Assembly: GCA_052034235.1 (NCBI GenBank)
Contig: JBPOIT010000009.1
Coordinates: 72,203 to 136,202, forward strand
Source: Candidatus Levyibacteriota bacterium
Lineage (GTDB): Bacteria > Patescibacteriota > Microgenomatia > Levybacterales > UBA12049
Reading direction: 5' to 3'
Length of the DNA: 64,000 nucleotides
Part shown: positions 16,945 through 34,119 of the stretch, piece by piece
Numbering within the stretch: the stretch's first letter is position 1
How the letters are laid out: each line of letters starts with the position of its first letter
Translations under genes and position numbers: made by a program
The notes under the pieces: model-generated
The model's database searches: none
Told to the model about the DNA's origin: nothing
The model's input: the letters and a program-made list of their open reading frames with translations, nothing else

Positions 16945-19308
16945 TTATGTTTTTGTTGGATCTTGTTTGCCAAGGCCGGTGGTAGGAGCTGAGACGTTAC
17001 CACCGACATGAGGAGAATTCATTAATGATGGGTGTGTTGCGTCATCTATGGGAGGAGTGCCTGGTGCAGCGCTCGTAGGGGCAGGTACGTCAAATGTTGC
17101 TGTTTGTTTGGTTAGAATCGGTGCAGCACTTGGGTCTTGACCAGCTGCTTTTTCTGCAGCTAATTTTTCTGCAGCGAGTGCAGCAGGACTTCCCGGGACA
17201 TGCTCGACTGGAGGAGGTGCCGTTGGGTTGCTGCTTAAATTTGCCCCAGTAGGCACTGCGTGTCCGTCTGCAGGTGTTTGGTGCTTTGTTGGTTCAGCAG
17301 CAGGAGCGGGTGCAACAGTGGCTCCTCCACCTGCCGGCGCATCTGGTGGTGGGGTATGTGTGGAATAGGAATGTGGAGCTGTCGGTTCTTCAGGTGGTGT
17401 GGCTGTTTCAGCATCAGCTTTGTCAGCTTCTTTTTCTGCTCCCTCTGCTTTGAGCATTCGTTCTTTGTCTTGCTGTCTTTTTAAGAGCTCAATAGGGTTG
17501 GAGGTTATCAGCTCATGTTCAAAAGGCGCGGCAAACACCTTCATAGCAACGTGATTTTGTCCTGCAAAAAAGAGTCCTTCTCCAACATCAGAGGAAAGGA
17601 GTAATGCTTTTTCACCTTCAGAAAGGTAAAAAGTTTCAGCGATCATGTCGACTTCAGCCGTGCCTTGTTTGAGAAGCACCTGAATGGAAGAGTTGGTGAG
17701 AACAGCTTTACCGTATTCATTTTTCAAAAAGTCTTCAACATCCTGCGTTGCAGTTGTGAGTCCCAGATAATATTTACGCGCACGTTTGGCGATAGAATAG
17801 ACAAAGGAAGCTGAGTCAGGATATTTCATCATGTACCAGCCTTCATCAAGAATCAAAATACGTTTCTTTAAGGATTTCTTCACTTTCGTCCACACGAAAT
17901 CAAGAATAATATGCATAGCCACAGGACGAAGCGCTTCCTCCATATTTCTGATAGAGAAGACAGTTAAAGGATTATTGATAGCAAAGTTTGACTGTTGGTT
18001 AAAAATACCGGCGGCACTTCCTTTGATGAACTTTTCAAGCATATAAGCAATTTCGCGAGAAGGCTGACTTTCCATACCCAGAAGTGTTTTATACAAATCT
18101 TCCATAAGTGGTGGCTCCCGTTTTTGGGTGGCAGGATCTGTTGTAATACCTTTCTGTCTGTATGTCTCAATAAGCGCACGGTCAAGGATAGCGTCGTGTT
18201 CTGCATCCAAATCCCCGGTAATAATTTTTAGTAACCCATGTAGAGAGAGAATTTTAAGCCCGAGCTCGTTTTCGCCTTCTTCGTAAATATCAGAAAGATC
18301 AAACGGATTAATTTTAATTTCAGAGCTTGACGAGAAATCAACAACTTCGCCCCCTAATGCAGGCGTTAAGGTAACATATTCTCCGTCAGGGTCAATAACG
18401 ATAACCTCAGCACCAAGCATAAATTGCCTACTGATTTCGAGTTTGATGGTATACGATTTTCCGGCACCGGATTTTCCTAACACAACTTCGTTAGCGTTTT
18501 CAAGAGAAAACCTATCAAAGATAATAAGTGATCCGTTTTGTTGATTGACTCCATACATAACACCTTTGTTTTGGGTCAGAATTGCGGACGTGAACGGAAA
18601 AGTCGACGCAAGAGAAGAGGTGTCCATATTGCGCGTGACATACAATTTATCAATACCCATAGGAACAGTCGTCTTGAAACCTTCTTCCATTTGCAGTGTC
18701 GCTATCTTTCCGGTGACAAGCAATCCTCCAAGTGCTGTTTGAAGTTCTTTTACGGTTTCTTTGAGCTTTGGCAGTTCTTCGTCCGAAATCGTCAGATAAA
18801 ATCCGAACTGAAAGAACCGCTCAATACCTTTTGCGAGTTCTTCTTGGAGTCCAAGTGCGTCTTCAAGCGCAGCTTCAACACTCGGATCTGCTACTTTTCC
18901 TTGTTCAGCATCAGATGAAAGTGTCGCTTCCATTTCTCCAATTTTTCTTTTTAAATCAGCTAACACGTCTGAGGAAGACGTAGGGTAACAAAACATAGCA
19001 ATATCAAGGGTATGATCATAATCAATAATTGGTTGCAGCCAGCCTGGTGATACGTAACGTGGGTATCCAGCGGCAAAAAGTGTCGTGTAATATGTATCGC
19101 CAACGCGTATGTATCGGAAATCAACTTCAACTGATGAAGGAGCTATGATGTCAACGACGGATGTAAGTCCTTTTTCTACAGTTTCAATTGCTTTACTTGT
19201 CGGTGGTGCTGCAACAGCAGCTTTTGCAGCTTTTCCAGCCATAGGAGCTGTGCCTGCTTTTTGAACAGTAGTGGTTGTGGGTTTTGCATTGCCGAATGGT
19301 AATTTCAT
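16945..19308 (-). CDS. virB4: VirB4/TrbE/CagE-family type IV secretion ATPase with a long Pro/Ala-rich C-terminal tail
   Basis: Walker A VVLGKSGAGKSYT and the VirB4-type ILILDEGWYMM (DEAW-like Walker B). The C-terminal tail of roughly 170 aa is low-complexity. Confidence 0.85.
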   Translation of the reverse strand: MKLPFGNAKPTTTTVQKAGTAPMAGKAAKAAVAAPPTSKAIETVEKGLTSVVDIIAPSSVEVDFRYIRVGDTYYTTLFAAGYPRYVSPGWLQPIIDYDHTLDIAMFCYPTSSSDVLADLKRKIGEMEATLSSDAEQGKVADPSVEAALEDALGLQEELAKGIERFFQFGFYLTISDEELPKLKETVKELQTALGGLLVTGKIATLQMEEGFKTTVPMGIDKLYVTRNMDTSSLASTFPFTSAILTQNKGVMYGVNQQNGSLIIFDRFSLENANEVVLGKSGAGKSYTIKLEISRQFMLGAEVIVIDPDGEYVTLTPALGGEVVDFSSSSEIKINPFDLSDIYEEGENELGLKILSLHGLLKIITGDLDAEHDAILDRALIETYRQKGITTDPATQKREPPLMEDLYKTLLGMESQPSREIAYMLEKFIKGSAAGIFNQQSNFAINNPLTVFSIRNMEEALRPVAMHIILDFVWTKVKKSLKKRILILDEGWYMMKYPDSASFVYSIAKRARKYYLGLTTATQDVEDFLKNEYGKAVLTNSSIQVLLKQGTAEVDMIAETFYLSEGEKALLLSSDVGEGLFFAGQNHVAMKVFAAPFEHELITSNPIELLKRQQDKERMLKAEGAEKEADKADAETATPPEEPTAPHSYSTHTPPPDAPAGGGATVAPAPAAEPTKHQTPADGHAVPTGANLSSNPTAPPPVEHVPGSPAALAAEKLAAEKAAGQDPSAAPILTKQTATFDVPAPTSAAPGTPPIDDATHPSLMNSPHVGGNVSAPTTGLGKQDPTKT

Positions 19309-19967
19309 TTCTTTGCCTCCGTAACCATTGTAGCTTGTATTCCTGGTTCTACTTGTTCCACATTAATCCCAGTTCCCTCATTATAAATATCATAAAAAAC
19401 CTTTATCAAATCTTCCTTCTCAAGCACTCTTGCTGAGGTCGCAAATTTTTGCAACTGACCGAGGAGTGTTGATGCTTTTGTATTCAATGCTTTCTTCGCA
19501 TCGACGGCAGTGATTTGTGCCTGAGACATGCCTTTTTGGACCGTTTGTGTTACAGCACTCACTCCAGCTTCAAGTGGAGAATAGGGGATAACGATATAAA
19601 ACGATTTACTCAAAACAACATTAACAGTAACCATCTCATGTACGAACGTGCGGTAATACTCAATATATTGTTTTAATTGTGGATTTTCAGTTTGGGCGAT
19701 AATCTCATCAAGCGATTTAAGATAGATTGAGATGTCGATGCGTTTATTTCTAATGAGAATTTGGATAGGGAAAGAGAGTGAGTTAAGAAGTGATGCGTAC
19801 GCAAAGATGCGGGTATCTTGTTCACGGCGTGATAGGAGCGCGAAGTTACTTGCTGTGATTTCGATAATCATGCAAGCAGCGCCTCCTTCAAGAACAACCA
19901 CATTGTCAACAAAGTCGACAATTTCGGTAAACTTTTGCGTTGTAGCATGTATTTTTTGGGCAGCCAT
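19305..19967 (-). CDS. hypothetical soluble protein translationally coupled to virB4 (ATGA start/stop overlap)
   Basis: 220 aa with no TM. The 4-nt overlap with the virB4 start implies they form an operon. Confidence 0.45.
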   Translation of the reverse strand: MAAQKIHATTQKFTEIVDFVDNVVVLEGGAACMIIEITASNFALLSRREQDTRIFAYASLLNSLSFPIQILIRNKRIDISIYLKSLDEIIAQTENPQLKQYIEYYRTFVHEMVTVNVVLSKSFYIVIPYSPLEAGVSAVTQTVQKGMSQAQITAVDAKKALNTKASTLLGQLQKFATSARVLEKEDLIKVFYDIYNEGTGINVEQVEPGIQATMVTEAKK

Positions 19968-19972
19968 ACGTT

Positions 19973-21295
19973 TTAATTAAATAATTGTTTTCGCAATTCT
20001 TCCCTCGCATCATGGGAAATAATTTCAATTGGTAACATAATTTGATTACTGGCGGTGATCTGAATGACGTCAAACGTGTGTTGTTTTTTTGGATCGTCAA
20101 GTTCAATTGTATAGATACCTTTTGCGAGAGGCGTTGCTGAAGCAAATTGTCCAAGGGCGTTTGTTTTAAACGCACGGACAGGATTACCATCTTTGTCTTT
20201 TACTTCGACAAGCATGTTTGGCAAGATGTTCCCACGAGGATCTTTGACAATTCCCACAACAACGTTTGGTGTATCTGAAATGTTTGGCAAGTCGACTTTT
20301 TTAGCGGGCGCCTGCGGTACCGTTTTCGCATACTGGGAAGCTGGAATTGCAACTGGTGAAGGTGCAGCGGCTGGAATTGGGGTTGGTGCAGCGGCTGCAA
20401 CAACCGGTTGTGCTACAACAGCAGGTTGCACAACTGTTGGTTGTGCTTTTTGTGCTACTAACTGGGATTGTAATTGTTGGATTTCCTGTTCCAATTTGAG
20501 TTTTTGCGTGTGAATCTCCTGAATTTGAGTTTCGAGAGTGGTAACTTTCTCGTGCGCTGCCGGAGCATGTGTTATATTTTCTTCCTGTTTTGCTGTTTGC
20601 AGTTCGTTTTGAAGCTGGTTCTCTTTTTGAGTCAATGATTGCTCTTTTTCCTGCTGGCCAGTAGCCGGCGTTTGCGTAGGTACAACAAGTGGTATTGCGA
20701 CAGCTGCCACTGTTGGTTTCATAGCGATGGGTTTTAAAGCTGGAGTAGGAGAGGCAGTCTGGGCAACAGAGTTTGTGACAGTTGGTAGTGATAATGAGCT
20801 AAGCATCGCTTGTTCCTTCTTATCGAGAGAGTTACTGCTCTGACTATGAGAATTTCGTAAAAATGCCTGCAATTGTGCTGCTTTTATGTCCACACCAGCT
20901 TGTTTTACTGATGCGGTTGTACTTTGTTTGGCGGGTTCTCCCTCAGCGGCAAGTGCAACTTTTGTATAGTTTACCGTCGAAAAACTGAATCTCCTACCAG
21001 TTTTTTTGTATATATATTGATTTGGAGAAAAAATTGCCTTAAAAAAGTTTCCTGCCATGACATCAACAGGTCTTCCTTCAATCGGAACAAATGCAATAAA
21101 CGCCCCACTACCCCCAAGGATTGGAATTAAAAGTACTTTTGTGAGTATTCCAAATATACCAGGCAGGGGTAAATAATAAAGAACAAAGGCCATAATAACA
21201 CCACTCGCGACGTAGCCAAATTGCTTGACGGTCATGGTACCGATGAGTTTAAACTGAAAACCTGTTACGTCTTGTGGAATTGGATGCTGATCCAT
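19973..21295 (-). CDS. PrgI/VirB3-like membrane protein with a coiled-coil, Gln/Ala/Pro-rich linker and a C-terminal beta-sandwich-like domain
   Basis: The N-terminus (FKLIGTMTVKQFGYVASGVIMAFVLYYLPLP) matches the PrgI-family TM hairpin. It has a long QELQ coiled-coil and a C-terminal VVGIVKDPRGN..VEVKDKDGNPV block that looks like a carboxypeptidase-regulatory domain. Start set at ATG 21295; the ORF track's start is GTG at 21322. Confidence 0.5.
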   Translation of the reverse strand: MDQHPIPQDVTGFQFKLIGTMTVKQFGYVASGVIMAFVLYYLPLPGIFGILTKVLLIPILGGSGAFIAFVPIEGRPVDVMAGNFFKAIFSPNQYIYKKTGRRFSFSTVNYTKVALAAEGEPAKQSTTASVKQAGVDIKAAQLQAFLRNSHSQSSNSLDKKEQAMLSSLSLPTVTNSVAQTASPTPALKPIAMKPTVAAVAIPLVVPTQTPATGQQEKEQSLTQKENQLQNELQTAKQEENITHAPAAHEKVTTLETQIQEIHTQKLKLEQEIQQLQSQLVAQKAQPTVVQPAVVAQPVVAAAAPTPIPAAAPSPVAIPASQYAKTVPQAPAKKVDLPNISDTPNVVVGIVKDPRGNILPNMLVEVKDKDGNPVRAFKTNALGQFASATPLAKGIYTIELDDPKKQHTFDVIQITASNQIMLPIEIISHDAREELRKQLFN

Positions 21296-21447
21296 ATAAA
21301 TAAACACAAACAGAATCTGCACTCATAGGTGCTTTACTGTTGCTAAAAGTGTATAACGTGAAAAATTTGATTGCAACTCCAACAAAGTGGGTCAAACAAC
21401 ATAGACATTTGAGGCTAATCGTGAAAAGGGGTGTTTTAGAGAGGGTG

Positions 21448-21852
21448 TTACTGACAGCCTCCAGTAGCTACAAGTTCTAGGTTTGTAATACAGTCGGAAG
21501 ATCCTGTGAGGAATCCTATAAAGTAAATAATTGCAAATGAGCCGAGAACAAGTATTACTCCCAGAACTGCAAAGGTTAGAATCTTACGTGCTTCCTGAGT
21601 TGCTTTTTGATCACCACCTGAATTAATAAATTTAACTCCTCCATAAATAAACATAACTGTTGCGGCAGCTCCAACGAACATAAGTGCTCCTGCAACTAAG
21701 TTATTAAAGAGAACAGGTATACAGCGCAGTGTTGCTACCTTGCTCTTTGCATCAACACAGTTTCCCCAGTCCTGGAATTGTGCTTGAACTGGAGTGGCAA
21801 CCACAGTAAGAAAAAAAGCTGTCAGTAGTGACAGAACAAGTAGCTTTTTCAT
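21448..21852 (-). CDS. VirB2/TrbC-like pilin paralog 1
   Basis: Signal peptide, two hydrophobic helices, and the motif INSGGDQKATQEARKILTFAVLG. Confidence 0.5.
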   Translation of the reverse strand: MKKLLVLSLLTAFFLTVVATPVQAQFQDWGNCVDAKSKVATLRCIPVLFNNLVAGALMFVGAAATVMFIYGGVKFINSGGDQKATQEARKILTFAVLGVILVLGSFAIIYFIGFLTGSSDCITNLELVATGGCQ

Positions 21853-21871
21853 AGATTAGGCTTGCGCGATT

Positions 21872-22315
21872 TTATGCGGCGGTAGGAATCTTAGGAAGGA
21901 CTAGATTTGTAAGACTTAGTCCGAAGAAACTCAAGACTACTGAGAGGATAAAGAAGGCGAGGAATGCGATAATTAAACCAACAATTGCGGCGATGACTGT
22001 TTTTCTTGCTTCATCAACTTTGCCTTTGTCACCACCTGAAGTTACCCATCGAAGACCACCGTAGATAAGGAAGAAGAGGGCAATGATTGCAACGATAATA
22101 AGGAGGAATGTTACAATTGCACCAATAATAGCCCCAAGATTGCCTGCTTCAAGGTTGCAAAGAGCTTGAAAGTTGGAATCGATTGTTGTACATGGATCGA
22201 CACTACCTGTCGCAAATGTTGGGAATGCTAGTCCTAAAAAGACTGCTCCGGATGCTGCTGTTGCTGAAAGTGTTGTTAGTAATTTTTTCATGTTTATTTT
22301 CTCTATACTCATCAT
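21872..22315 (-). CDS. VirB2/TrbC-like pilin paralog 2
   Basis: Signal peptide (MKKLLTTLSATAASGA), two TM helices, and the motif WVTSGGDKGKVDEARKTVIAAIVG. Confidence 0.5.
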   Translation of the reverse strand: MMSIEKINMKKLLTTLSATAASGAVFLGLAFPTFATGSVDPCTTIDSNFQALCNLEAGNLGAIIGAIVTFLLIIVAIIALFFLIYGGLRWVTSGGDKGKVDEARKTVIAAIVGLIIAFLAFFILSVVLSFFGLSLTNLVLPKIPTAA

Positions 22316-22367
22316 ATGCTACTTTTTTTATTGTTGTCAATAGATCAAAATAAGTCAGTATTTTTCT

Positions 22368-22712
22368 TTACAACTTTATGTTGAAGAATGAACCTAAAAT
22401 GTTGACAAACATAAAAGACAAAAGCACAATAACAAGTCCGACAATTGACCAGGTAAGCCGTGCTCGTGCTGATGCAACTTTTGCTTTATCTCCAGCTGAT
22501 GATGTCCATTGAATGCCAGCGCGTACTATCGAAATAAGGCAGAGGACGATCGCAATAATAACAAAGATTGTAATACCTCCTCCGACCGCTTGTTCAAGTC
22601 GTGCTTCTCCACCTTGAGGAATCGATTTCGGGGCATTAATCTGAACTCCCGGTTGTCCATCCGCACCAGGAAGTGTTAGCGTAATATATTCAACCATACT
22701 TATACCGTACAA
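22368..22712 (-). CDS. VirB2/TrbC-like pilin paralog 3
   Basis: Two TM helices and the motif WTSSAGDKAKVASARARLTWSIVG, shared with the two upstream paralogs. Confidence 0.45.
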   Translation of the reverse strand: MYGISMVEYITLTLPGADGQPGVQINAPKSIPQGGEARLEQAVGGGITIFVIIAIVLCLISIVRAGIQWTSSAGDKAKVASARARLTWSIVGLVIVLLSFMFVNILGSFFNIKL

Positions 22713-22787: not shown

Positions 22788-24122
22788 ATGATTCAAGATC
22801 ATTTAGAAGCCCAATATCCAAGTGACAGCCGGGAGGAAGAAATTAGCAAAATTTTTGCCTTTGCCGCGGAAGGGAATTCGTGTCAGATTATTGGTATTCC
22901 AGGAACCGGAAGAACAAGCCTCCTCGAAATACTTGCATATAACAAAGAACTTCAAAAGAAACATTTAACGAATTTAGAAATGAAACCTCATTTCGTTATG
23001 GTTAATTTTTCTGAAATCAGGAATCGATCTTTGTTTGATGCCATGAAATTTATGTTTCTCAATCTTACGGAGTCACTTCGTGAAGAGAAAATGCCTGAGG
23101 AGCATAAAGTTGTCGGCGATAAATTTAGAGAACATTTGCAATTTCAGGATGAGCTGATACTTTTTCAAGGATTTAAAGAAGCTGTTGATTATATGGCAAA
23201 TGAAAAGAAAATAACTCTTGTCTTTTTGTTTGATCGTTTTGAAGAATATATTCCAATAGTCACAAGTGGATTCTTTACGAATTTACGGGTGCTTCGTAGT
23301 AATGCAAAATATCATTTTTCAATAGTTTTTTCACTGCCACGACCATTAGAATCACTCCTTGAACCTTCTCTTCTATCGGACTATTACGAATTCGTTGCAG
23401 ATAGGCATATTTATCTTAATCTTTATGATGTTCCATCGACCAGTTTCCGTTTATCTTACATAGAAAAGATTACCAGTAAAAAACTAGATAAGAAAGTGTT
23501 TGAAGAAATAGTCGGCATGACGGGTGGTCTTGGAAAACTGACAAAACTTGCTGTTGAGGCTGTTCTGGCAAATAATGGAACGCCTGAACGATTGCAGGAT
23601 TTTTTGCTTGCACAAAAGACTATACGGGCAGGACTTCGTGATATTTGGCAGACATTATCTCCTGCTGAGCAAGCAGATCTTCTTGAGAAGAAATTTGAAG
23701 ATCCAGATGTCGCAGTATATTTGGAACAAGTTGGCTTGATAAAAGATAAGCATATACAAATCCCATTAATAGCTGCATTTATCGACACTTTTGCAAATGA
23801 GCAATCAGCTGAAGCTCAAAAAATTGTTTATGATGAAAATACAAACACTATAAAAAAAGGTTCAGTAACACTTTCTGACCAGCTAACGTCATCTGAATTC
23901 CGATTACTCAGATATCTTTTGCAAAACCAGGAAAAGGTAGTTGAGAGAGATGAACTTATTGGTGTCGTGTGGCAGGGGAATAAATCGACGGCAGGTATTA
24001 CAGACCAGGCAGTTGATCAGCTCGTATTTCGTGTTCGTCGCAAAATTGAAGAAGACCCCAACAATCCTCAACACCTGCAGACTGTAAAGGGTCGCGGGTT
24101 TAAATTTGTTTCTTCAATGTAG
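22788..24122 (+). CDS. transcriptional regulator with an N-terminal P-loop NTPase-like domain and a C-terminal OmpR/PhoB-type winged helix
   Basis: Walker-A-like GIPGTGRTSLLE, with Arg in place of the canonical Lys. The C-terminus (EFRLLRYLLQNQEKVVERDELIGVVW...AVDQLVFRVRRKIEEDP...LQTVKGRGFKF) is a typical trans_reg_C domain. There is no receiver domain. Confidence 0.65.
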   Translation: MIQDHLEAQYPSDSREEEISKIFAFAAEGNSCQIIGIPGTGRTSLLEILAYNKELQKKHLTNLEMKPHFVMVNFSEIRNRSLFDAMKFMFLNLTESLREEKMPEEHKVVGDKFREHLQFQDELILFQGFKEAVDYMANEKKITLVFLFDRFEEYIPIVTSGFFTNLRVLRSNAKYHFSIVFSLPRPLESLLEPSLLSDYYEFVADRHIYLNLYDVPSTSFRLSYIEKITSKKLDKKVFEEIVGMTGGLGKLTKLAVEAVLANNGTPERLQDFLLAQKTIRAGLRDIWQTLSPAEQADLLEKKFEDPDVAVYLEQVGLIKDKHIQIPLIAAFIDTFANEQSAEAQKIVYDENTNTIKKGSVTLSDQLTSSEFRLLRYLLQNQEKVVERDELIGVVWQGNKSTAGITDQAVDQLVFRVRRKIEEDPNNPQHLQTVKGRGFKFVSSM

Positions 24123-24187: not shown

Positions 24188-27100
24188 ATGAGTAATCCAA
24201 ACGAAGAAGAAAAATTGACACCAAGTTCGGCGAAAGGCTATGATGGAGATAGTACTCAAATGGCTGAAAAACCTGAAATTGAAAATTCTGATGAAGAAAG
24301 AGATCCTCACGATAGTGAGGTAGACCCTCATGGAGAAGATAAACCGGAAACGAATGAACAGCAAAATACAGAGACGAAAAAAAATACTATTGCTGAAATG
24401 TTTAGTGCACTTCTTTCCTCAGTAAATCCTGAGAATGGTGGTCCGGAAGATAAAATCTTCAAAACAGTTGTTGAGGCAGTTACAGACGCAACTTCAAAAA
24501 ATAAGAATCCCAATAAAGCAATTGCTGAAGTAATGAGCTCATTTCTTCTTCCCAATAAGCCAGCTGCAGATTCTACGGAGGAAGAGTTGGAAGGAACAAA
24601 AAAAGCGAGAGTGGTTTTTGATACCATTCTTGAGAGTGCAGAGGAAGCACATCTTGATTCAAAAGCAATTTTAAAAGAGCTTGCAGGTATCGCTAAAGAA
24701 CAGCAGGAAGAACTACCTACAACGGCTCAAGATAGATATGTAGTATTTGAGCAGCATTTGAAAAAAACCCTTAATACTGCTTCTGACGAGGCACTTCAGA
24801 TTATGCACGAAGACCTGAAAAAACTTCGTGCAGAGATAGCCAATGACACCCAGCTCGATGAAGGCGTGTACGAAGCGGTTTTAGATTCGGAAACGCTTCT
24901 CGCAGAAGTGGTAGAAGTAAAAGAAGACACAGCAACGCAGGAATTTATAGAAATTCAACAGGCAAATGATAAAAAATTTGCTCAAGTTATCGTAACTGTT
25001 TTTGAATCAGTTGCAGAGACCCGATTCACAAATCTTACTCCTGGCAAAGAAGTTAATTTGCGAAAAGAAGAACAGCTGAAAGCAGATCATCTCATGAAAC
25101 TCTTATTGGCGAGTGATGATCCTAAGCAACAAAAGCAGGAATTAGTTGCAGCACTGCTGACGAGTTATCCAGTTGCAGGTTCAAGTGCTGAGCAGCAAGA
25201 AGCACTTGCAATGAGAGAACGAATCATGGGTTATGCAAAACTTGCCGGGTTGGACGAGAAAGCAATTTTAGACAATCAAGCGATTATTGCAGCTGAGGAT
25301 ATGCTTGTGTCAAAAACAGATGCAGTAAATGATTCTGAGTCTATAGTTGGGTCTGATCTCAATGCGTTTGAGAGAAAAGTTGAACAGCAAATTGCCAATG
25401 CTTCAGCGGAAAGAGTGAAAGAGATTCAGGATACATGGAAGGATTTACTAGAAAGTGTTGATCCCAATAGTGAAACGGCTCGTGAAGCTCTAGAAGCAAT
25501 CGCGGTGCTTGATAACATTATCCAACTAAAAGAAATGCAAGCAGCTCGAGATCGAGGGGAATCTGTTGATTTCAGTACACTTCCGGTGCCAAAGGAATAC
25601 AAACATAATGATCACGAAGCAAAAGAATCGGCAAGCAAAAGTGAATCTGATAAAGAATTAGCAGCTTTACTCGCCAAGCTTTTCTCACCGCTTCGTAAAG
25701 GTGACAAAGCAGAAGATTATGCGCTGGTAAGTGTAATTACCGATTTTATTCTTGCGTCAGAACATACCAAAGAAGAAAAAGAAGCACTAATTGCTGGTAT
25801 TGCCAAATGCTTCTCTCAAAAAGATACCCATACATCTGAAGCGAATGACATACCCTCCTATCTCCGAATATATGCGGATTCCGTGGCATTAGCTCAGCCA
25901 ACAGTTGATGCAGGAACATCAGAAAAAGAAGGACATGAAGACACACCTGAGTTATTGCAGAAACTTATCGAAGAAGCATTAGCTAAAGTTTCTCACAAAG
26001 ACCTTATTCAGTTAAAAGGTGCACTGGGCTTTGTTGCTATTAAAGAAAAACCTTCAGCTGAGATTAAAGAACAGATTACACAAACGATAGCTTTTATTAA
26101 TGCTCTGCCAACTGATAAAGAAAATGCAAAAAAAGCTGATGCATCACAGCGGCCTGTCGAGAAGCCAGAGAAAGCGATCAAAGCTGAAGATGCAGAGAAA
26201 ATAGAAGAAAGATTGGTTGAAGGCTCAATGCAGACAATAGAAGCAAAGAGGCAATCATTCTTCGAAGAGACGCACTTTATTAATGAAGAAAACAATATCG
26301 AGCGGTTTAATGTTGTGCGTTTAGAGAATTATGCAAACAACCTGAAGGATTTAGGTAGTCAACTCTCTGAGTCGGAGCTCAAGTCAGCTTATATGGCGCT
26401 GCAAAAACAGATAACACTTTCCAGAAGAGCTCCGGAATTTAATGGCAATTTTCATTTGGACGAAGTATTACACGTCAACGAGATTTCTAATGATGCGCTG
26501 CGTGATATCGTGGCTCGGTTGCGAGAAACAATGGCTCCTGCCGAGGTAATGAAGTTCATTAATGAGACAAAACGCTCGTTGAGAGATAATAAAGCATATA
26601 ACGAGCGACTTTCTCTACCTCCACGAGTTTACAATATGGAGCCAACGGTTGTTGAAGCTTCTGTTGGTAATCGATACTACGAACCCGGCTCGAGGTTTCA
26701 ATTAGGGAACGCTATTAACGAGATTCGTTCCATGTCCACGACGCCAGATCCTGCTTTGCCAGCAAATTTAGGATCTGATTATACAGAAATTGCAACAAAT
26801 ATAAAGACCCAACAGGAATTTTCTAATACGGCAGTATTGGAAGATCGTATGCATAAGCTTAACTCTCTGATGTCTGAAGGTATGAGAGCAGGTATCAATC
26901 TTAAGGACATGACACAGGCACAGGCTTTGGCGCAGCAATTACATGCACAGCGACAAGAAATAGCAGTAATGGAGCAAATGTATAAAGGTCAGATGGATGA
27001 ACGAACATATAAAGCTGAAGATGAAGCACTCTACGAAGGTTATATACATACAGCTCTTGGAGAACGGATTAAACGTATTCAAATCGAGTTGGAGATCAAA

Positions 27101-30100
27101 TCCGGATTGCGATCACGTACTTATGTTGATTCGAGTGGGAATACCCACACGCATAAGGTTCGAACAGACGAAGAGCTTATAGCTTATTACACAGAACTGC
27201 GAAAATGGGCAAAAATTCTTCTAAAAAATGATGTGCGAAATAATGCGGGTAAAGCAGGGCAAGAAGGGGCGCTTAATTTATCGAACGAACGGTTTAAGCG
27301 ATATAGTGACATTGTAAAAGCTCTCCCAGACTCTTTTGATCTTGCAAATGCGACGGATACTGCAGCTATGCTAAGTAACGTTAATTACATGTTTGATATA
27401 ACAACATCAGGAGGAGATTTTTTGCGCTACTTTATGAGAAATACGAAAAATCCAAAAGGAATTGATCCAGAGAAACATGACTCAATAGATTTTAATCCTC
27501 ATGAATTACTGGGGGTCGATTATCGCCATGCTGAAGGTACCAGTTCGTTCGGGTTGCCGAAATCTCTGGAGGATACCATGGCAATTATGGCAAGACAGTA
27601 CTCTACAGAGAAAATTAATTATAGAACTGGAGGAGATCACGAATTATTCGATGGGGAAGGAAATTTTAAATTCAACAATTTCTATTACCTCATTCGTGAA
27701 CAGATTCTGAACAATGATATCTTATATAACAAAGATGGACAGATTAACCCAATGCAAAAAATTACCGTAAAGGGTGATGCTTCATCAGTCTCTCTGGCAG
27801 AGTTATTGGTTTTAATGCCTGAATATTTATCCCAAAGAACGTTTGATATCGTTGTCGATAACGATGGAGACGTTACTTCAGGATGGGGGCGTCCAACAGA
27901 ACACCCTGAATTTACGTGGGCACAAGCACAACAGTTGGGTGCTGAAGTTGAATTTAGAATCATGACTCACGAAGCGAGAATTCAGTATGTCCAAGCGTCA
28001 CTTGCTGGGGATAAAGGGAAGTATTTGCAACTTATGGAGTATTTGCATAAATCAAATCATTGGGTTCGTGCGAATAATATTATGTGGCTGCTTGGTTTAC
28101 CATCAGCGGTAACAAATGGTTCGCAGGAAATTATAGATGTCGTTGGTCCCAAAGAAACCCAAGGCACACTCGGAAAAGCAGTGAGCGATATGCTCGTTGG
28201 GTATAATTATATAAATGAAGTCTCAAAATATTACAAACATGCAAATGGGGAAGAGAAAACCTTCAATGAAAACATGTTTTATAGATTTTGGGAACCAAAT
28301 GGCGCAAATAAATTTCTTGTAACTATGACTGAAGAGACATTAAATAACTACAGTGACGCCAAAAGAGAATATGGGCGATTTATTCAGGAGCGCATACAGG
28401 CGGCAGCAGTGAGGGCTCGCTCTCTTGCGGGAGGAGATGCTGTCAAACTCGAAAAAATTGACCGCCAACTACAAGACCAAACACAAGCAATTCAGGCGGA
28501 AATGGATAAACAAAATGTAGGACTTGATATTCGGTTTACCAAAGACAGTCATTTAATGAAATTTTTACAATATACAGAAAAAGAAGTGTTGGGAAGGAAA
28601 TTCCGTAATAAAAAAGAAGAAGAAGAGTATTTCAAATTTACGGTGCGTGATGATCTCCTTGATAATTTAAAAGGCGGTTTGTTTACAAAATTAGCTGATA
28701 TGCAAGTTCATGAACTTGATACACTTGTAGATAAAAATAATAAGACCAAAGATCGTCCTGATACCTATCTTTTTCTTCGGGCAAAACAGAATAAAATGCG
28801 CTTTGGGGACATACGTTTTGATGGGCAGACGATAGAAGAGTTGTTAAACGACTTTAACCCTGAGCAAATCAAACGGTTTGATTACACAAACAAGGCAGAT
28901 GATCCACGAAATCACTTCAGTGCTTTCGCAAATGATCCTGATCGATTGCGAAGAGAATTGGATACGTATATGGATGCGAAAATTAATCCAGAGAATTACA
29001 AGTTCTTTAAACATAACGAAAAAATGATGCTTGCCTTTCTCAAACATGTAACGCGAATTGATCGGGCATGGCTTAATCATTTCCGTGATATTCCGGAGAA
29101 TGAAGTTGTAAAAGATATGGAGAAACGCGCAATGGAAGAATGTGTACAGCTAGTCCATGGTGTTGATGACATAGAAGCGACATACGCATGGTGGCAAGCA
29201 CGAGATTATATCTATATTTGGGGAATTGGTGATTGGTTGGATGATAGTGGTATCGGATTCAGAACTGGTGGTAAACTTTTTCATACTGGCAAATGGCGTG
29301 CACATAGAGGTGGCAAAGACGGTGCTGGGAATAAAGACACCTTCGACGAATTTGGAGCAGTGGCGCTACCCTTCTTAAACACTATTCAAATTCATGATAT
29401 AGAAGGGCATCAAGAGCTTGGGCATCAAAGTATTTTTAGTTTACTACAAGGCGGGCATGGCTATAATATTACACCACGTGCTGCACGTGAGTTTAAACCA
29501 CGTAGTCGGTACTCGATAGCGCATGATTCTGAAGAGTTATATGTCGCAAATATGCTTTCAAACGCAGCAGAACTTGCAGATTTACTCTCAACGACGGAAG
29601 TTGACTTTACGAATATTGTTGCGACAGATCCTTTGGGTAATATTGTTTTTGATTATGGAAAAGCACGAGAGCTGTTTAAAAAATGGCGTAAAGCTATCAG
29701 ATATTCATATCAAAAAAACGGTATTGATTATCGCGAGAAAATCTGGGTTGACGGACAGGAGAAAACCCTGTATGAATTTTGTTTTGGTAAAAAAACACGT
29801 GCAATTAATGAACTGATCAGACAAGAAACTGGTCGCTCTATTGACGATATGTTTCGTGATACGGCAGATGCTGTTATGGCATCAATTATTGCTGCTGAAG
29901 TCTATGAACACAGGAAAATGCATTTGAGTGGCCATCACTGGACAATCGAGAATGTGATTGAACTCGAAAAAGTTATCCGGGAGTTTATGGATGAGTCTGA
30001 TTTAGAAGAAGACGAACATGGAGATGTTGAGCTCGTGCGTAAAGGCAATGCCTTCACAAAAAAAGTCTTCAGCGGCGCACTGAAAGCATATCATACAAGT

Positions 30101-30211
30101 TATGAAAAAATGTATATGGCAGAATTGAATTCATCTTTCTGGGGAGGTTTGTTCGCAGGCTTATGGGCAGGATTGAATGCCTCACTCACGAAAGGGAAAT
30201 GGATATATTAG
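24188..30211 (+). CDS. giant (2007 aa) hypothetical protein with an acidic low-complexity N-terminus, no signal peptide, and a short hydrophobic C-terminus
   Basis: An uninterrupted 6 kb open frame in an AT-rich genome. No recognisable catalytic motif. The C-terminal FWGGLFAGLWAGL segment is hydrophobic/amphipathic. Its stop overlaps the convergent virB6-like gene. Confidence 0.7.
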   Translation: MSNPNEEEKLTPSSAKGYDGDSTQMAEKPEIENSDEERDPHDSEVDPHGEDKPETNEQQNTETKKNTIAEMFSALLSSVNPENGGPEDKIFKTVVEAVTDATSKNKNPNKAIAEVMSSFLLPNKPAADSTEEELEGTKKARVVFDTILESAEEAHLDSKAILKELAGIAKEQQEELPTTAQDRYVVFEQHLKKTLNTASDEALQIMHEDLKKLRAEIANDTQLDEGVYEAVLDSETLLAEVVEVKEDTATQEFIEIQQANDKKFAQVIVTVFESVAETRFTNLTPGKEVNLRKEEQLKADHLMKLLLASDDPKQQKQELVAALLTSYPVAGSSAEQQEALAMRERIMGYAKLAGLDEKAILDNQAIIAAEDMLVSKTDAVNDSESIVGSDLNAFERKVEQQIANASAERVKEIQDTWKDLLESVDPNSETAREALEAIAVLDNIIQLKEMQAARDRGESVDFSTLPVPKEYKHNDHEAKESASKSESDKELAALLAKLFSPLRKGDKAEDYALVSVITDFILASEHTKEEKEALIAGIAKCFSQKDTHTSEANDIPSYLRIYADSVALAQPTVDAGTSEKEGHEDTPELLQKLIEEALAKVSHKDLIQLKGALGFVAIKEKPSAEIKEQITQTIAFINALPTDKENAKKADASQRPVEKPEKAIKAEDAEKIEERLVEGSMQTIEAKRQSFFEETHFINEENNIERFNVVRLENYANNLKDLGSQLSESELKSAYMALQKQITLSRRAPEFNGNFHLDEVLHVNEISNDALRDIVARLRETMAPAEVMKFINETKRSLRDNKAYNERLSLPPRVYNMEPTVVEASVGNRYYEPGSRFQLGNAINEIRSMSTTPDPALPANLGSDYTEIATNIKTQQEFSNTAVLEDRMHKLNSLMSEGMRAGINLKDMTQAQALAQQLHAQRQEIAVMEQMYKGQMDERTYKAEDEALYEGYIHTALGERIKRIQIELEIKSGLRSRTYVDSSGNTHTHKVRTDEELIAYYTELRKWAKILLKNDVRNNAGKAGQEGALNLSNERFKRYSDIVKALPDSFDLANATDTAAMLSNVNYMFDITTSGGDFLRYFMRNTKNPKGIDPEKHDSIDFNPHELLGVDYRHAEGTSSFGLPKSLEDTMAIMARQYSTEKINYRTGGDHELFDGEGNFKFNNFYYLIREQILNNDILYNKDGQINPMQKITVKGDASSVSLAELLVLMPEYLSQRTFDIVVDNDGDVTSGWGRPTEHPEFTWAQAQQLGAEVEFRIMTHEARIQYVQASLAGDKGKYLQLMEYLHKSNHWVRANNIMWLLGLPSAVTNGSQEIIDVVGPKETQGTLGKAVSDMLVGYNYINEVSKYYKHANGEEKTFNENMFYRFWEPNGANKFLVTMTEETLNNYSDAKREYGRFIQERIQAAAVRARSLAGGDAVKLEKIDRQLQDQTQAIQAEMDKQNVGLDIRFTKDSHLMKFLQYTEKEVLGRKFRNKKEEEEYFKFTVRDDLLDNLKGGLFTKLADMQVHELDTLVDKNNKTKDRPDTYLFLRAKQNKMRFGDIRFDGQTIEELLNDFNPEQIKRFDYTNKADDPRNHFSAFANDPDRLRRELDTYMDAKINPENYKFFKHNEKMMLAFLKHVTRIDRAWLNHFRDIPENEVVKDMEKRAMEECVQLVHGVDDIEATYAWWQARDYIYIWGIGDWLDDSGIGFRTGGKLFHTGKWRAHRGGKDGAGNKDTFDEFGAVALPFLNTIQIHDIEGHQELGHQSIFSLLQGGHGYNITPRAAREFKPRSRYSIAHDSEELYVANMLSNAAELADLLSTTEVDFTNIVATDPLGNIVFDYGKARELFKKWRKAIRYSYQKNGIDYREKIWVDGQEKTLYEFCFGKKTRAINELIRQETGRSIDDMFRDTADAVMASIIAAEVYEHRKMHLSGHHWTIENVIELEKVIREFMDESDLEEDEHGDVELVRKGNAFTKKVFSGALKAYHTSYEKMYMAELNSSFWGGLFAGLWAGLNASLTKGKWIY

Positions 30212-32064
30212 CGCTTCTGTCCGTCTGCAAATCCATTAAATTTGACCAGTTTGTAACGGAGACGTTTCATTGCAGGTACATATGATTGTCTATTACCCCA
30301 ACTGAAGTTTGGATCCCCAGTCTCTGCACCTTTTCCGGCAGCGACTCTTCGTAGCCATCCAGCATCATGTTCGTGCAGTTTGGCATTGCGTGTGCCATGG
30401 TTCCACATTGCGCCAAACGCAGCTCTTGGTACTGCTGCTCCAGCTGCAAGTCCTGCTCCAATTGCTGCTCCATGTTTTGTCCCAGTCACTTTAAGAGATT
30501 CCTGAAGAATGGCGAGCATTGATGGTGACATCAAGAGTAGTCCAAAAGCAATAAGCCATCCCATAAGCCCAAGGATATTTGGATTTCCTATAAGCGGGGC
30601 GATAAAATAGTCTGGAGTGCCGGCTGCGATCGCAGAATCTCCAGCAGCAGCGGCAGCAGTGCTTTTATTACTGAATAACTCCACAAACAAACGTGCTAGC
30701 ACAAAGACAAAGGCTGTAACAGGAAAAACTGCGAGATTAGCAACCATTGAGCGAAGCCATTTTTCAAAACCAAGTGGTTTACCAGGTAGTAATCCCATCA
30801 CAATAAAGAACGGGGCAGCTATAGAATAAATTATGACATAGGTGTAGGCTTTAAGTAGGGTAAACCATACACTAAAAAGTACTTTCAAAATTGTAATAAG
30901 AATAATAAGCCATAAGAGCATTTTTGCAATAAAACCAATGACAGTTGCAAAGCATCCTCTAAACGAAAATCCACCTAGACCAATACCACAATCATCTGTA
31001 TTTTTTATATTCATCATCTGCTTAATAAGTTGTTCCATAAATTGTCCCAAACTGTATGAAACTTCCTGGGTAATATTTTTAATGCCTATATCAATATCAT
31101 TGTCGCCAAAATTCAAAACGTCATTGTTCTCAGCGACTCTAAACACGTTATTCACATAGGTCAAAGGCATTTGGAGTAAATTAGCGGTAGCTACATCAGA
31201 AAGTGGACGAGTTTGTGAATTAGGATCTTTGGCGTTGCCGTTTGCGTCAAGTGATGTATCTAAATTTTTATCACCGGGAACCATGGGATTTGTGATTGAG
31301 TTTTCGCCTGGGCCTCCTGCTGATGTAATGACGTTGATGCCGACATAAGTCGTTAGCCACATTGTATCAATGAGTAACCCTGCAATTCCGTATGAAAAAG
31401 TTACGAGAATAATACAAACTATAATGCGAGGAATTTGATTTTGAATTGTCATAATTGTTCGAGGAGACATTTCAATTCGAAGCATTATGCCAAGGCCGAT
31501 GATGACGAACGCAACCATCAAAAGAAAATATGCCATATTTCGAATAGCAGTCCAGAGTGTTAATAAGGGGTTTAGCCCTTGAAACCCATATCCAAATTCC
31601 TGCGCATATGCGGGTTTCACTATGCCGAAGTTCTGTGCGAGATAGTCTGTATACTGACTTGTACTGATTGTTGGTGTATATAAGGCACTAATCAAATTTG
31701 TAGAAGCACCCACAATACCTCCAATTTTTGGAGAACCATCCTTATCCAGTGAAGCAGGATTATACCCAATTTTGCCGGTGGTAGGATTAACGTCCAAACA
31801 AGCATGGTTTTGATCCACTGGATCTATTCCGACGAGTATACACATCGTTGATGCCATGAGATCAATCATGAGTGTTTGTACCCTCGTGTGTTGGTTCACC
31901 GGAACATTGGAGTCGGTATTTGGCAAATTGTAGGAGTTGCCTGTATTTGACGTTGGATATGAAGATTGTGTTGATGTTTGAGCAAGCACTGGTGAGGTCC
32001 CAAAAAAGAACGTCACAAGTGATAAACAGAAGACTACAATAAAAGCGCGGGCAGCAAAGCGCAT
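30208..32064 (-). CDS. VirB6/TrbL-like polytopic membrane protein
   Basis: Signal peptide, a roughly 150-aa S/T/N-rich extracytoplasmic region, then at least 6 TM helices with long loops. It sits within the T4SS-like locus. Confidence 0.45.
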   Translation of the reverse strand: MRFAARAFIVVFCLSLVTFFFGTSPVLAQTSTQSSYPTSNTGNSYNLPNTDSNVPVNQHTRVQTLMIDLMASTMCILVGIDPVDQNHACLDVNPTTGKIGYNPASLDKDGSPKIGGIVGASTNLISALYTPTISTSQYTDYLAQNFGIVKPAYAQEFGYGFQGLNPLLTLWTAIRNMAYFLLMVAFVIIGLGIMLRIEMSPRTIMTIQNQIPRIIVCIILVTFSYGIAGLLIDTMWLTTYVGINVITSAGGPGENSITNPMVPGDKNLDTSLDANGNAKDPNSQTRPLSDVATANLLQMPLTYVNNVFRVAENNDVLNFGDNDIDIGIKNITQEVSYSLGQFMEQLIKQMMNIKNTDDCGIGLGGFSFRGCFATVIGFIAKMLLWLIILITILKVLFSVWFTLLKAYTYVIIYSIAAPFFIVMGLLPGKPLGFEKWLRSMVANLAVFPVTAFVFVLARLFVELFSNKSTAAAAAGDSAIAAGTPDYFIAPLIGNPNILGLMGWLIAFGLLLMSPSMLAILQESLKVTGTKHGAAIGAGLAAGAAVPRAAFGAMWNHGTRNAKLHEHDAGWLRRVAAGKGAETGDPNFSWGNRQSYVPAMKRLRYKLVKFNGFADGQKR

Positions 32065-32155: not shown

Positions 32156-32245
32156 TGGCGGAGAGAGGGGGATTCGAACCCCCGATAGCCTTGCGGCCAT
32201 ACACGCTTTCCAAGCGTGCGCACTCGACCACTATGCGATCTCTCC
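32156..32245 (-). tRNA. tRNA-Ser(GGA), class II, with CCA encoded
   Basis: Manual fold: acceptor GGAGAGA/TCTCTCC, anticodon loop TTGGAAA, long variable arm, T-loop GGTTCGAATCC. Confidence 0.8.
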
Positions 32246-32387
32246 AAAAGTTGTTTCTTTTATAAACTTTTTGTAAGCTTCCTATCAAGTTGTATATCAT
32301 TCCTGAGAGTATACTTATCGTGTCATTATATCGCATTTACAAGGTATTTGCATAAATGACAGAGAGATTGTAATATTAGGAGGAATT

Positions 32388-33125
32388 ATGAGTAATGAAA
32401 ATTCAGCAGAAGAAGGTGCAGTAGTCAAACCAGAGAGAGCTCATGAAGGTAATGCAGAGGTTGGAGAACCTCTGCCTGATCGCACAGCACCAAGTCGTTT
32501 GCAACCGCCAGAAACGGTTAATGTAGACGGTGAAAATTCTCCGAGTCAACCGGACCACGAGACACCATCTCCAGAGTTTAATGATTTGCACCCCGATGAA
32601 CGGAAAGCATTTGAGGAGCAAGGTATTACGAGCGATGTGTACGACGAGTTAAAGGAGTTAAGTCAGGAGATTATACAAAATGGCAGCCTTCCTCCAGAAA
32701 AACAAGAAAGGCTTGATGAAATGGTTGATAAACTGCAGGATTTGTCACCAGATATAAAACAGAAACTGGGTGAAATGTTAACGGCTGAGAACCAAAAGTT
32801 GAGCGAAGAGTTAGACAAACCCGATCCAGCTGCAGCGCTTGAAGTGGATCCTCAAACGGTTTCTGCACTCGGTGAAGCACAGGGGGCGGTTAATCATTTG
32901 CTTGCAAGTGATGAGAGAGAATTAGATATCGATCGGGCAAAAGCAGCGTCTGATGCATTACATAAAGCTCGAGAGAAGCTCGATCTTGAGAAAGCAGACA
33001 AATTAGGGGAAGGTCCGTCTAAGGCTTATAGGATATGGGTTACTTTGGGGATAATGTTTTATCTCTATGTAGGAGCGCAGTATGCGATGGCTAAATTTGT
33101 TGGCGGTTTTAGTTCCAATAAGTAA
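32388..33125 (+). CDS. acidic hypothetical protein with a C-terminal TM anchor
   Basis: Glu/Asp/Pro-rich with a coiled-coil-like segment. C-terminal YRIWVTLGIMFYLYVGAQYAMA. Confidence 0.45.
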   Translation: MSNENSAEEGAVVKPERAHEGNAEVGEPLPDRTAPSRLQPPETVNVDGENSPSQPDHETPSPEFNDLHPDERKAFEEQGITSDVYDELKELSQEIIQNGSLPPEKQERLDEMVDKLQDLSPDIKQKLGEMLTAENQKLSEELDKPDPAAALEVDPQTVSALGEAQGAVNHLLASDERELDIDRAKAASDALHKAREKLDLEKADKLGEGPSKAYRIWVTLGIMFYLYVGAQYAMAKFVGGFSSNK

Positions 33126-33187
33126 ATACCCGTGTAAGAATCCAAACTTCTTGATAGCATGTGAATTCTACACGGTAACCAATAATG

Positions 33188-33271
33188 CGGAGAGGGGGGG
33201 ATTCGAACCCCCGAGGCTCATCGCCTGGCGGTTTTCAAGACCGCTGCACTAAACCACTATGCGACCTCTCC
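33188..33271 (-). tRNA. tRNA-Ser(TGA), class II
   Basis: Manual fold: anticodon loop CTTGAAA, long variable arm, T-loop GGTTCGAATCC. Confidence 0.8.
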
Positions 33272-33337
33272 AGTCGTCTGTGTATTGTATCAAAAATTTT
33301 CCTTGACTTCATCCAGAGAATCATTTACAGTGAAGAT

Positions 33338-33985
33338 ATGAGTGAAGCTGCCCTTCAACCACAAGATCAACCTCAAGTGCCGCCTCAGGAGCCCCAACAA
33401 GCGCCTCCTCCTCCTATTCAGCAGCGGCCATATGATTCCAATCAGCCCTACCAACCAATGTATGCTAACCGATATGATCCCCGCGTCTCACACGATGTTA
33501 AAACATTTTTAACATGGCACGCTCCTGGTAGACCTTTTAAAGAGCACTCAAAGGAATACTTTATTAATGGTTTTCTTATTATGATGGCTCTTGAGATTAT
33601 CCTCTTTTTGTTTGCCCAATATCTTCTTATGTTGGTGGTTTTCTCGTTTGTCTTTTTGTCTTACTCGCTTGCCATTGTTCCGCCGAAAGATTTTTATTAC
33701 AAGATAACAAGCGAAGGCATTCGTATAGAGGACCATGTGTTTATTTGGGAAGAACTATATGATTTTTACTTTTTAACCCATCATGAAGAGGATACATTAC
33801 ATATCAGAACGAAGGCATATCTTCCCGGAGAATTAACTATTACGTTAGGAGATATCTCTGTTGGTCAGATTAAGAAAGTATTACTTCCATATCTTCCGTA
33901 TCGGGAATACGTCAGACCCAATTTTACTGAACAAGCCGGAGATTGGTTAACCCAAAACTTTCCTCTTGAAAGATCCACACAATAA
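33338..33985 (+). CDS. hypothetical membrane protein with a Pro/Gln-rich N-terminus
   Basis: The ORF track begins this ORF at 33185, but its first 51 codons are antisense to tRNA-Ser(TGA). The first ATG clear of the tRNA is 33338 (MSEAALQ...). Two TM helices. Confidence 0.5.
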   Translation: MSEAALQPQDQPQVPPQEPQQAPPPPIQQRPYDSNQPYQPMYANRYDPRVSHDVKTFLTWHAPGRPFKEHSKEYFINGFLIMMALEIILFLFAQYLLMLVVFSFVFLSYSLAIVPPKDFYYKITSEGIRIEDHVFIWEELYDFYFLTHHEEDTLHIRTKAYLPGELTITLGDISVGQIKKVLLPYLPYREYVRPNFTEQAGDWLTQNFPLERSTQ

Positions 33986-34038
33986 TTTGATTGCAAGCCT
34001 CAGATAAGGTAAAATACACATGTTGCTTTGCAAAATAC

Positions 34039-34112: not shown

Positions 34113-34119
34113 CACAGTT

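Follow-up and report, generated by a model that had tools for sequence, protein, structure and literature searches.

A hypervariable family of large proteins encoded within the type IV secretion loci of Levybacteria-like Patescibacteria

Type IV secretion systems (T4SSs) of Patescibacteria are encoded in gene clusters near dnaA, in or near which neither a relaxase nor a coupling protein has been recognised (PMC12102498; PMC10633639), and some T4SSs are described that have no coupling protein (PMC12102498). The one patescibacterium open to genetic work needs its T4SS for epibiotic growth, yet what the system does is termed 'completely unknown' and a substrate has still to be identified (PMC10633639; PMC11665869). 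The T4SS studied in Saccharibacteria has no known substrate either, and the authors speculate that it exports proteins (PMC10633639; PMC12102498; PMC11665869). The subject of this study is a 64,000-nucleotide stretch of DNA from a Candidatus Levyibacteriota bacterium (GenBank assembly GCA_052034235.1, contig JBPOIT010000009.1, positions 72,203 to 136,202; hereafter the window), in which a T4SS locus includes a gene for a protein of 2007 amino acids (aa), hereafter the giant. The giant is an enlarged member of an undescribed protein family; the family is a constant part of the examined T4SS loci of Levybacteria-like Microgenomates (Patescibacteria), and almost the whole of its gene, together with the end of a convergent membrane-protein gene, is exchanged as one hypervariable cassette.

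The closest described loci are SEML1_0006-0019 of Southlakia epibionticum (PMC10633639) and those of a survey of Patescibacteria (PMC12102498). They share with the window a chromosomal, dnaA-proximal, monoderm-type locus with genes for VirB4, TrsD, PrgI, VirB2-like pilin arrays and cell-wall hydrolases, in which a relaxase or coupling protein is not recognised; they differ in that neither study describes a counterpart of the giant's family or a hypervariable cassette. Nor do the family and the cassette appear in the 2025 T4SS nomenclature review or the other literature searched. SEML1_0011 of S. epibionticum, a 998-aa, essential, unannotated protein (PMC10633639), might be an analogue of the giant.

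A large protein linked to a T4SS and a specificity locus swapped by recombination are both already familiar in kind. The CagA, Bep and X-Tfe effectors of VirB/VirD4 and Dot/Icm systems resemble the giant in being large, made in the cytoplasm without a Sec signal and encoded in or beside a T4SS locus, with one terminal element conserved and a tendency towards basic and hydrophobic residues at the C-terminus; the rapid diversification of the giant would likewise fit a host-facing function. The giant differs from these effectors in that no coupling protein was found in its locus or window, its best-conserved end is the N-terminal one, it is present as one copy per locus throughout the lineage rather than as a variable repertoire, and no homology to them was found. 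CagY of the Helicobacter pylori cag T4SS is a VirB10 homologue of about 2000 aa, with transmembrane (TM) segments, that varies by in-frame rearrangement of internal repeats. Both CagY and the giant are T4SS-locus proteins of some 2000 aa that are remodelled by recombination while the other genes of the machine stay constant, but the giant has no VirB10 domain (Pfam) and no TM segment, contains one weak internal repeat only, and varies as entire alleles replace one another, their synonymous sites being saturated. Capsule and O-antigen loci, phage receptor-binding proteins and polymorphic toxin loci are swapped cassettes between conserved genes, and the window's locus shares with them sharp and fixed breakpoints, old alleles in near-identical backgrounds, and conflict between the trees of cassette and flanks; here, in contrast, the unit consists of a single gene for a non-Sec protein and the 3' end of a T4SS membrane-protein gene. 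In the extended VirB6 proteins of Rickettsiales (PMC7648143; PMC12857230), a very large hydrophilic polypeptide is tied to a VirB6-type channel protein, much as the giant and the C-terminal tail of its VirB6-like neighbour are inherited together; the giant, however, is encoded by a separate, convergent, unfused gene, and the VirB6 homology of its 618-aa neighbour is not shown by sequence. What is new is the combination of a peptide conserved at the N-terminus with a module for which no fold neighbour is known and a cassette extending into the tail of a channel protein.

The giant gene and its linkage to the T4SS

The reading frame of the giant begins with ATG and continues for 2007 codons without interruption. 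With a GC content of about 0.39-0.40 in the window, roughly 6% of random codons would be stops, so that the frame must be real and cannot have arisen by chance (roughly e^-130 by our own estimate). The same allele, with 99% DNA identity, is present in an ENA assembly independent of the window (locus L011); between these copies dN/dS (the ratio of non-synonymous to synonymous divergence) is 0.15, and the C-terminal module carries 1 non-synonymous and 10 synonymous changes. Each allele is thus functional and under purifying selection. A scan for promoters and terminators gave no difference from shuffled sequence.

The giant is very acidic, with a net charge of -88 over the whole protein and -17 over its first 100 aa, and its acidic N-terminus contains no Sec- or Tat-like signal. 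No TM segment was found, every 19-residue window lying below a Kyte-Doolittle value of 1.6, and the sole hydrophobic element is the C-terminal FWGGLFAGLWAGL, which includes a single GxxxGxxxG pattern at residues 1987-1995. The TAG stop codon (30209-30211) overlaps the TAA stop (30208-30210) of the convergent 618-aa gene. The original prediction, made from the nucleotide letters and translated frames, had described this uninterrupted 6-kb frame, the acidic N-terminus without signal peptide, the restriction of hydrophobicity to the C-terminal end, the overlap of the stop codon with the convergent gene and the want of a recognisable catalytic motif, and all of these descriptions were borne out. 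Candidate activities were examined motif by motif. A Walker-A ATPase was rejected because there is no Walker A, the sequence QGSLGKA not conforming to GxxxxGK[ST]; an HUH relaxase and an HExxH protease were also considered and rejected after inspection of motifs, and an LPXTG adhesin was rejected because LPXTG is absent. The suggestion that the protein might be a surface fibre or adhesin in the classical sense, that is, a Sec-dependent monoderm surface protein, is not supported: there is no signal peptide, there is no LPXTG, and the structural models are mostly alpha-helical.

Eleven loci had enough flanking DNA for synteny to be counted, and one further contig was too short to judge (loci are labelled L001-L013 and family proteins by P-numbers; all comparison sequences are metagenomic contigs). 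In 11 of 11 the family member has genes for a winged helix-turn-helix (wHTH) regulator and T4SS pilins on one side and the gene for a convergent polytopic protein of 533-618 aa on the other; on every contig that extends far enough, VirB4, TrsD and PrgI adjoin them. The arrangement is the same whether the member measures 900 or 2358 aa and even where identity falls to about 20%, with a single copy of the family in every locus examined. The link between the giant and the T4SS is accordingly strongly supported; orthologs had been expected to co-occur with T4SS genes, and no case of orthologs apart from such genes was encountered. The regulator lies on the same strand as the family member in the window and is divergent from it in L007, L008 and L010.

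The hypervariable cassette and the convergent membrane protein

The T4SS proteins of the window are close to those of locus L001 (97% identity for VirB4, 98% for TrsD, 90% for PrgI, 96-99% for the pilins, 96% for the regulator and 90% for the VirB6-like protein); the giants of the two loci are 50% identical in the N-terminal half and 58% in the module. At the DNA level identity is 88.6% up to about position 24282, is then confined to patches of 66-70% within the giant gene, and returns to about 90% between 30323 and 30440. Synonymous divergence (dS) between the two loci is 0.2-0.74 in the flanking genes, and the proportion of synonymous differences (pS) in the giant gene is 0.75; because its synonymous sites are saturated, the alleles of the giant are far older than the genomic background in which they lie. 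Identity to the window's module is higher for L012 (67%) than for L001 (58%), whereas the regulator is 96% identical to that of L001 and 82% to that of L012, and every flanking gene contradicts the relationship of the modules among these three loci. The same pattern was found in a second lineage, the Levybacteria loci L009 and L013: here DNA identity in the flanks is 98.7-99.2% and protein identity 99.9% for VirB4 and 100% for TrsD and PrgI, against 39.5% for the family members. In both lineages the left breakpoint falls directly after the N-terminal motif (at codons ~28 and ~33) and the right breakpoint ~77-80 codons before the end of the VirB6-like gene, and the VirB4 proteins of these two lineages are themselves only ~65% identical. 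These comparisons show that the alleles moved by homologous recombination as one cassette and did not arise by fast local evolution. Mutagenesis by a diversity-generating retroelement was rejected on the pattern of divergence, which includes indels and saturated synonymous change over 6 kb and does not take the form of A-specific changes in a short repeat; no search aimed at a reverse transcriptase was made.

The dependence of these comparisons on metagenomic contigs raises the question of an artefact, by which the variability would stem from a spurious open reading frame (ORF), chimeric assembly or decay of a pseudogene. Alleles recur in independent samples, however (the allele of L011 is that of the window, that of L002 is that of L001, and the P0111 allele is found on 19 contigs), and assembly chimeras are unlikely because not only alleles but also junctions recur. 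The length of the frame is beyond chance, close copies bear the mark of purifying selection, and the AlphaFold models are confident, so that an artefact is scarcely credible. The swapped, hypervariable pattern suggests selection from outside the cell.

The convergent protein of 618 aa begins with a signal-peptide-like sequence and is predicted to span the membrane 6-7 times. No match to VirB6, TrbL or PrgH was obtained in Pfam, NCBIfam or PDB, the last also searched with a 10-sequence profile; VirB6 is reported to be scarce in Microgenomatia, 'suggesting extreme sequence divergence' (PMC12102498). The placement of the giant gene between the regulator and a VirB6-like gene, as originally proposed, is thus confirmed as to position, which is the same in 11 of 11 loci, and finds no sequence support as to the VirB6 identity of the neighbour. 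Between the window and L001 the body of this protein is 95% identical and its last 75 aa are 48% identical; between L009 and L013 identity is 100% over 450 residues and then, within the last ~90, falls to 54% and 20%. The swapped tail (~77 residues, encoded at 30208-30440) is rich in Gly and Ala and basic, with a charge of +6 to +12 over the last 80 residues, and retains the motif (D/E)xGxLRxxAxG; by the positive-inside rule it is probably cytoplasmic. This basic tail complements the very acidic giant and varies together with it. A short, variable, indel-bearing loop between TM segments was also observed at residues ~250-290, the remainder of the protein outside the tail being ~98% identical to that of L001.

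The composition of the swapped segment bears on whether the giant might have a cytoplasmic function outside secretion, such as defence or sensing, and be co-regulated with and merely linked to the T4SS genes. Its gene is invariably next to that of the regulator, whether in the same or in divergent orientation; the protein shows no export signal of any known type; and defence genes too are hypervariable and exchanged horizontally. Against such a function stand the lack of any PADLOC or PHROGs match, the strict synteny within the T4SS locus, and the fact that the swapped segment takes in the tail of a T4SS membrane protein with the same breakpoints in two lineages; the shared breakpoints and the swapped tail therefore tie the giant to the T4SS machine, and we consider an unrelated function improbable.

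Architecture of the protein family and its possible roles

A word-indexed search with the giant returned four homologues only (99, 58, 51 and 37% identity), with conservation mostly in the C-terminal half. An exhaustive profile search with residues 1040-2007 extended the family to at least 106 cluster representatives at E≤1e-3, 31 of them at E≤1e-30; the members are mostly of 900-1200 aa, with a few of 2000-2350 aa, and the module is C-terminal in every one. Named members are hypothetical proteins of Levybacteria or of the 'Patescibacteria group'. More than 100 clusters in the same database match VirB4 at 70-91% identity, while the giant has one relative above 60%. When GTDB genome contigs were scanned twice with degenerate peptide patterns, no relatives emerged, an outcome that depends on the pattern and is no evidence of absence. 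Neither the giant (Pfam, NCBIfam) nor 30 of its relatives (Pfam) gave a match above noise, and searches of PDB with the single sequence and with a profile returned noise only (for example the poly-Q of huntingtin, E 0.004). Comparison of the giant, its relatives and its neighbours with PADLOC and PHROGs gave nothing for the giant, and against known T4SS components (VirB1-11, VirD4/TcpA and PrgA-L/Trs/Con) the giant showed no sequence homology, fold likeness or NTPase motif. AlphaFold2 modelled the module of the window as a mostly alpha-helical structure with a predicted local distance difference test (pLDDT) score of 84.7 and a predicted template modelling (pTM) score of 0.84, and a complete 900-aa member with a pLDDT of 81.6 and a pTM of 0.72; neither model had a significant Foldseek neighbour in PDB or BFVD, and the predicted fold of the module is therefore one without a Foldseek neighbour among solved structures. 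The giant had been called an orphan, a description that holds for curated families, in which it has no match, yet not for homologues, which populate at least 106 clusters.

Four parts make up the architecture of the family: a near-invariant N-terminal peptide, an acidic spacer, a two-block module, and a C-tail that is rich in Gly and ends in basic residues. The N-terminal motif, LT-x(5-7)-[Y/L]-x(1-8)-M-x-[E/D], lies in the first ~45 residues and was found in 60 of 93 full-length members, compared with 4-5% of shuffled or internal controls; few columns of a 31-sequence alignment (mean column identity 21%) are invariant, and the L, T and M of the motif belong to these. In the model of the short member, residues 1-86 have a pLDDT below 50, with the motif predicted to be disordered and undocked, and for this reason the motif is expected to behave as a free linear peptide outside the fold. 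A hidden Markov model of the motif found no other carrier among the ORFs of the window and 13 loci. The acidic spacer ranges from 150 to 1400 aa across the family and measures ~1000 aa in the giant of the window, where its expansion is due in part to duplication: residues 107-171 weakly resemble 311-370 and possibly also 517-542. By phmmer against the family, the N-terminal half of the giant (1-1040) is common in full to its five closest 'giant' relatives only, P0011 and the fragment P0008 matching just its last ~170-190 residues (849-1040). Within the module, which is of the alpha/beta kind and ~900 aa long, two blocks (~1114-1500 and 1619-1996) are conserved, and the linker between them is more variable and contains helical and beta elements. 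Glycine makes up 15.6% of the C-tail across the family, compared with 7.2% overall, and 78% of members carry a net positive charge on their last 12 aa (mean +1.27 versus -0.25). It had been suggested that an amphipathic C-terminal tail would fit a T4SS signal; the tail is indeed conserved, Gly-rich and mostly basic at its end, but its amphipathicity is barely above control, there is no validated signal model for monoderm or patescibacterial systems, and the best-conserved terminal element of the family is the N-terminal peptide and not the C-tail.

This architecture invites comparison with interbacterial polymorphic toxins, delivered by the T4SS in the manner of X-Tfe effectors and with alleles matched to immunity proteins. 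A conserved N-terminal element followed by a variable remainder, together with allele swapping, resembles polymorphic toxin loci; the C-terminal glycine zipper could in principle insert into membranes; and alpha-pore-forming toxins are among the Foldseek matches, all of them non-significant (E 1.4-6.4). The C-terminal region is, however, one homologous module throughout the family and not a set of unrelated toxin domains, no toxin domain was found in scans of Pfam, NCBIfam, PADLOC and PHROGs, and the swapped segment holds only the giant gene and the end of the VirB6-like gene, with no small immunity-like ORF. A toxin of this kind has a slim chance of being correct.

We propose that the giant may be a dedicated T4SS cargo or host-contact protein whose ends dock to the machine and whose body is swapped by recombination, and we regard this proposal as evenly balanced between right and wrong. 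An external selective agent would imply that the giant either reaches the host by export or is exposed to it. The constant N-terminal peptide, and perhaps the C-tail, could dock the giant to conserved parts of the machine, the basic cytoplasmic tail of the VirB6-like protein could serve as an allele-matched docking site for the acidic giant, and the variable body would then act on the host bacterium or be recognised by it. Should the body indeed face the host, diversifying or frequency-dependent selection would for that reason keep old, divergent alleles in circulation. As in T4SS effectors, the giant is encoded with a T4SS, co-occurs with it and lacks a Sec or Tat signal. The initial idea of a secretion substrate or effector is to this extent sustained by linkage in 11 of 11 loci and, indirectly, by the swapped hypervariable cassette. 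A T4SS coupling protein (VirD4- or TcpA-like), which would recruit a substrate, was not found among the scanned window ORFs of at least 150 aa or in related loci; one may be encoded elsewhere in the genome. A more specific version, offered tentatively and with rather low confidence, is that the family is the cargo of a patescibacterial T4SS, a host-range or host-manipulation protein that carries a new N-terminal peptide signal and docks on the allele-matched VirB6-like tail, cargo and tail being swapped together. If true, such a cassette of cargo plus adaptor would be a modular specificity switch not described for any T4SS.

The main rival reading makes the giant a cytoplasmic structural subunit or adaptor of the T4SS that is not exported, acting as a substitute for the coupling protein, a gate or a platform, and tethered by the C-terminal helix and the VirB6-like tail. 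Several observations weigh on this side: each examined locus has one copy, always in the same place; the large fold persists at identities as low as ~20%; there is no signal peptide; and a coupling protein is not recognised in or near the patescibacterial clusters studied and was not found in the window. Co-variation with the VirB6-like tail suggests physical contact, and the Gly-rich C-terminal helix may resemble the membrane-targeting helices of peripheral proteins such as MinD and FtsA. One would hardly expect a purely internal subunit to be the sole hypervariable gene of the locus (40-58% identity, versus 96-100% for VirB4, TrsD, PrgI and the pilins), or to occur as ancient alleles shuffled by recombination, and the giant has no NTPase motif and no match to a known T4SS component in Pfam, NCBIfam or PDB. 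A role as subunit or adaptor accounts for the universal single copy and the conserved fold and not for the hypervariability, and is in our judgement possible but unlikely.

As a cargo or host-contact candidate the family is concrete and testable for T4SS delivery or host recognition, at least in Levybacteria-like lineages. The N-terminal peptide, the C-tail and the VirB6-like tail are defined elements for mutation or reporter fusion, and the pattern of allele swapping is a ready marker for strain-level studies of host specificity in metagenomes.

Locus setting and neighbouring genes

The window is chromosomal and near the replication origin, carrying yidC, dnaA, dnaN and genes for PGK, penicillin-binding proteins, FemAB and DUF4012, and its layout fits published patescibacterial T4SS loci near dnaA (PMC12102498; PMC10633639). 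A search for plasmid relatives by tblastn gave no match, and there is therefore no sign of an origin from a conjugative plasmid. The T4SS is of the monoderm type, with VirB4, a separate TrsD/TraC-like protein, PrgI/VirB3 and three pilin-like proteins (Table 1), and the set also includes a DUF11-repeat protein and an M74-like peptidase. The closest named match of VirB4 is from Candidatus Levyibacteriota. In the three two-TM proteins the pilin assignment agrees with their L001 orthologues, which are 96-99% identical and carry PF18895 (T4SS_pilin). The regulator matches Trans_reg_C (E 5.7e-19) and, weakly, AAA_16 (E 0.0035).

Table 1. Positions in the window of the giant gene, its parts and the associated T4SS genes.
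Feature	Position	Strand	Basis
Core T4SS genes	16945..21322	-	Pfam/NCBIfam matches
VirB4, CD1110 family, 787 aa	16945-19308	-	NF045971, E 2.3e-109
TrsD/TraC-like protein, 220 aa	19305-19967	-	TrsD, E 4.4e-4
PrgI/VirB3 with CarboxypepD_reg domain	19973-21322	-	PrgI, E 1.1e-6
Three small two-TM proteins (134, 147, 114 aa), taken as VirB2-type pilins	21448..22712	-	TM pattern
Regulator with P-loop N-domain (AAA_16-like, weak) and OmpR-type wHTH	22788..24122	+	
Giant-protein gene, complete, 2007 aa	24188..30211	+	ORF and translation, homologues, conserved synteny
N-terminal linear motif, residues 10-27, LTPSSAKGYDGDSTQMAE	24215..24268	+	
Hypervariable cassette, exchanged by recombination: gene body after the N-terminal motif and last ~77 codons of the VirB6-like gene	24270..30440		
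Internal repeat in the acidic helical N-terminal half	24506..25297	+	self-BLAST, 35% identity, E 0.002
Conserved C-terminal module, residues 1040-2007	27305..30208	+	profile search, AlphaFold2
C-terminal tail, residues 1982-2007, SSFWGGLFAGLWAGLNASLTKGKWIY: glycine-zipper hydrophobic helix, then basic end	30131..30208	+	
Convergent polytopic membrane protein, 618 aa, VirB6-like by position and topology only	30208..32064	-	TM prediction

Two details of these genes were noted in passing. VirB4 is split, as reported in Patescibacteria, the gene for the 220-aa TrsD/TraC-like protein overlapping the start of VirB4 by 4 nucleotides (19305-19308). The P-loop of the regulator reads GIPGTGRTS, Arg replacing the usual Lys of Walker A.

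At 32388-33125 (+), between two tRNA-Ser genes, lies the gene for an acidic protein of 245 aa whose TM segment is C-terminal, a tail-anchored topology. This is a second hypervariable gene of the locus: the protein shares 28-30% identity with the corresponding proteins of L001 (336 aa) and L012 (262 aa), in DNA that is otherwise ~90% identical to L001, and only the C-terminal TM region (W..ALK.LGVAFY.YVG.QY) is well conserved. The listed start of a 266-aa ORF at 33185-33985 (+) is spurious, because its first ~29 codons (MRRGGDSNPRGSS...) are a reverse-strand reading of the tRNA-Ser gene at 33187-33271 (-); the true start is probably the Met at residue 52 (MSEAALQ...). Six tRNA genes lie within 32156-38821, five for tRNA-Ser (GGA, TGA, CGA, GCT and an unusual ACT) and one for tRNA-Arg(GCG). 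Directly between tRNA-Ser(GCT) and tRNA-Ser(ACT) is a LAGLIDADG-type ORF (37624-38625, -), whose placement could reflect insertion of a homing endonuclease or duplication at a tRNA gene. Finally, the adjacent and slightly overlapping ORFs at 35867-36436 (-) and 36429-36788 (-) have nearly the same starts (SSNIVPSSPP and SSNIVPSGPP), which points to repetition of a short DNA element or duplication of a gene start.

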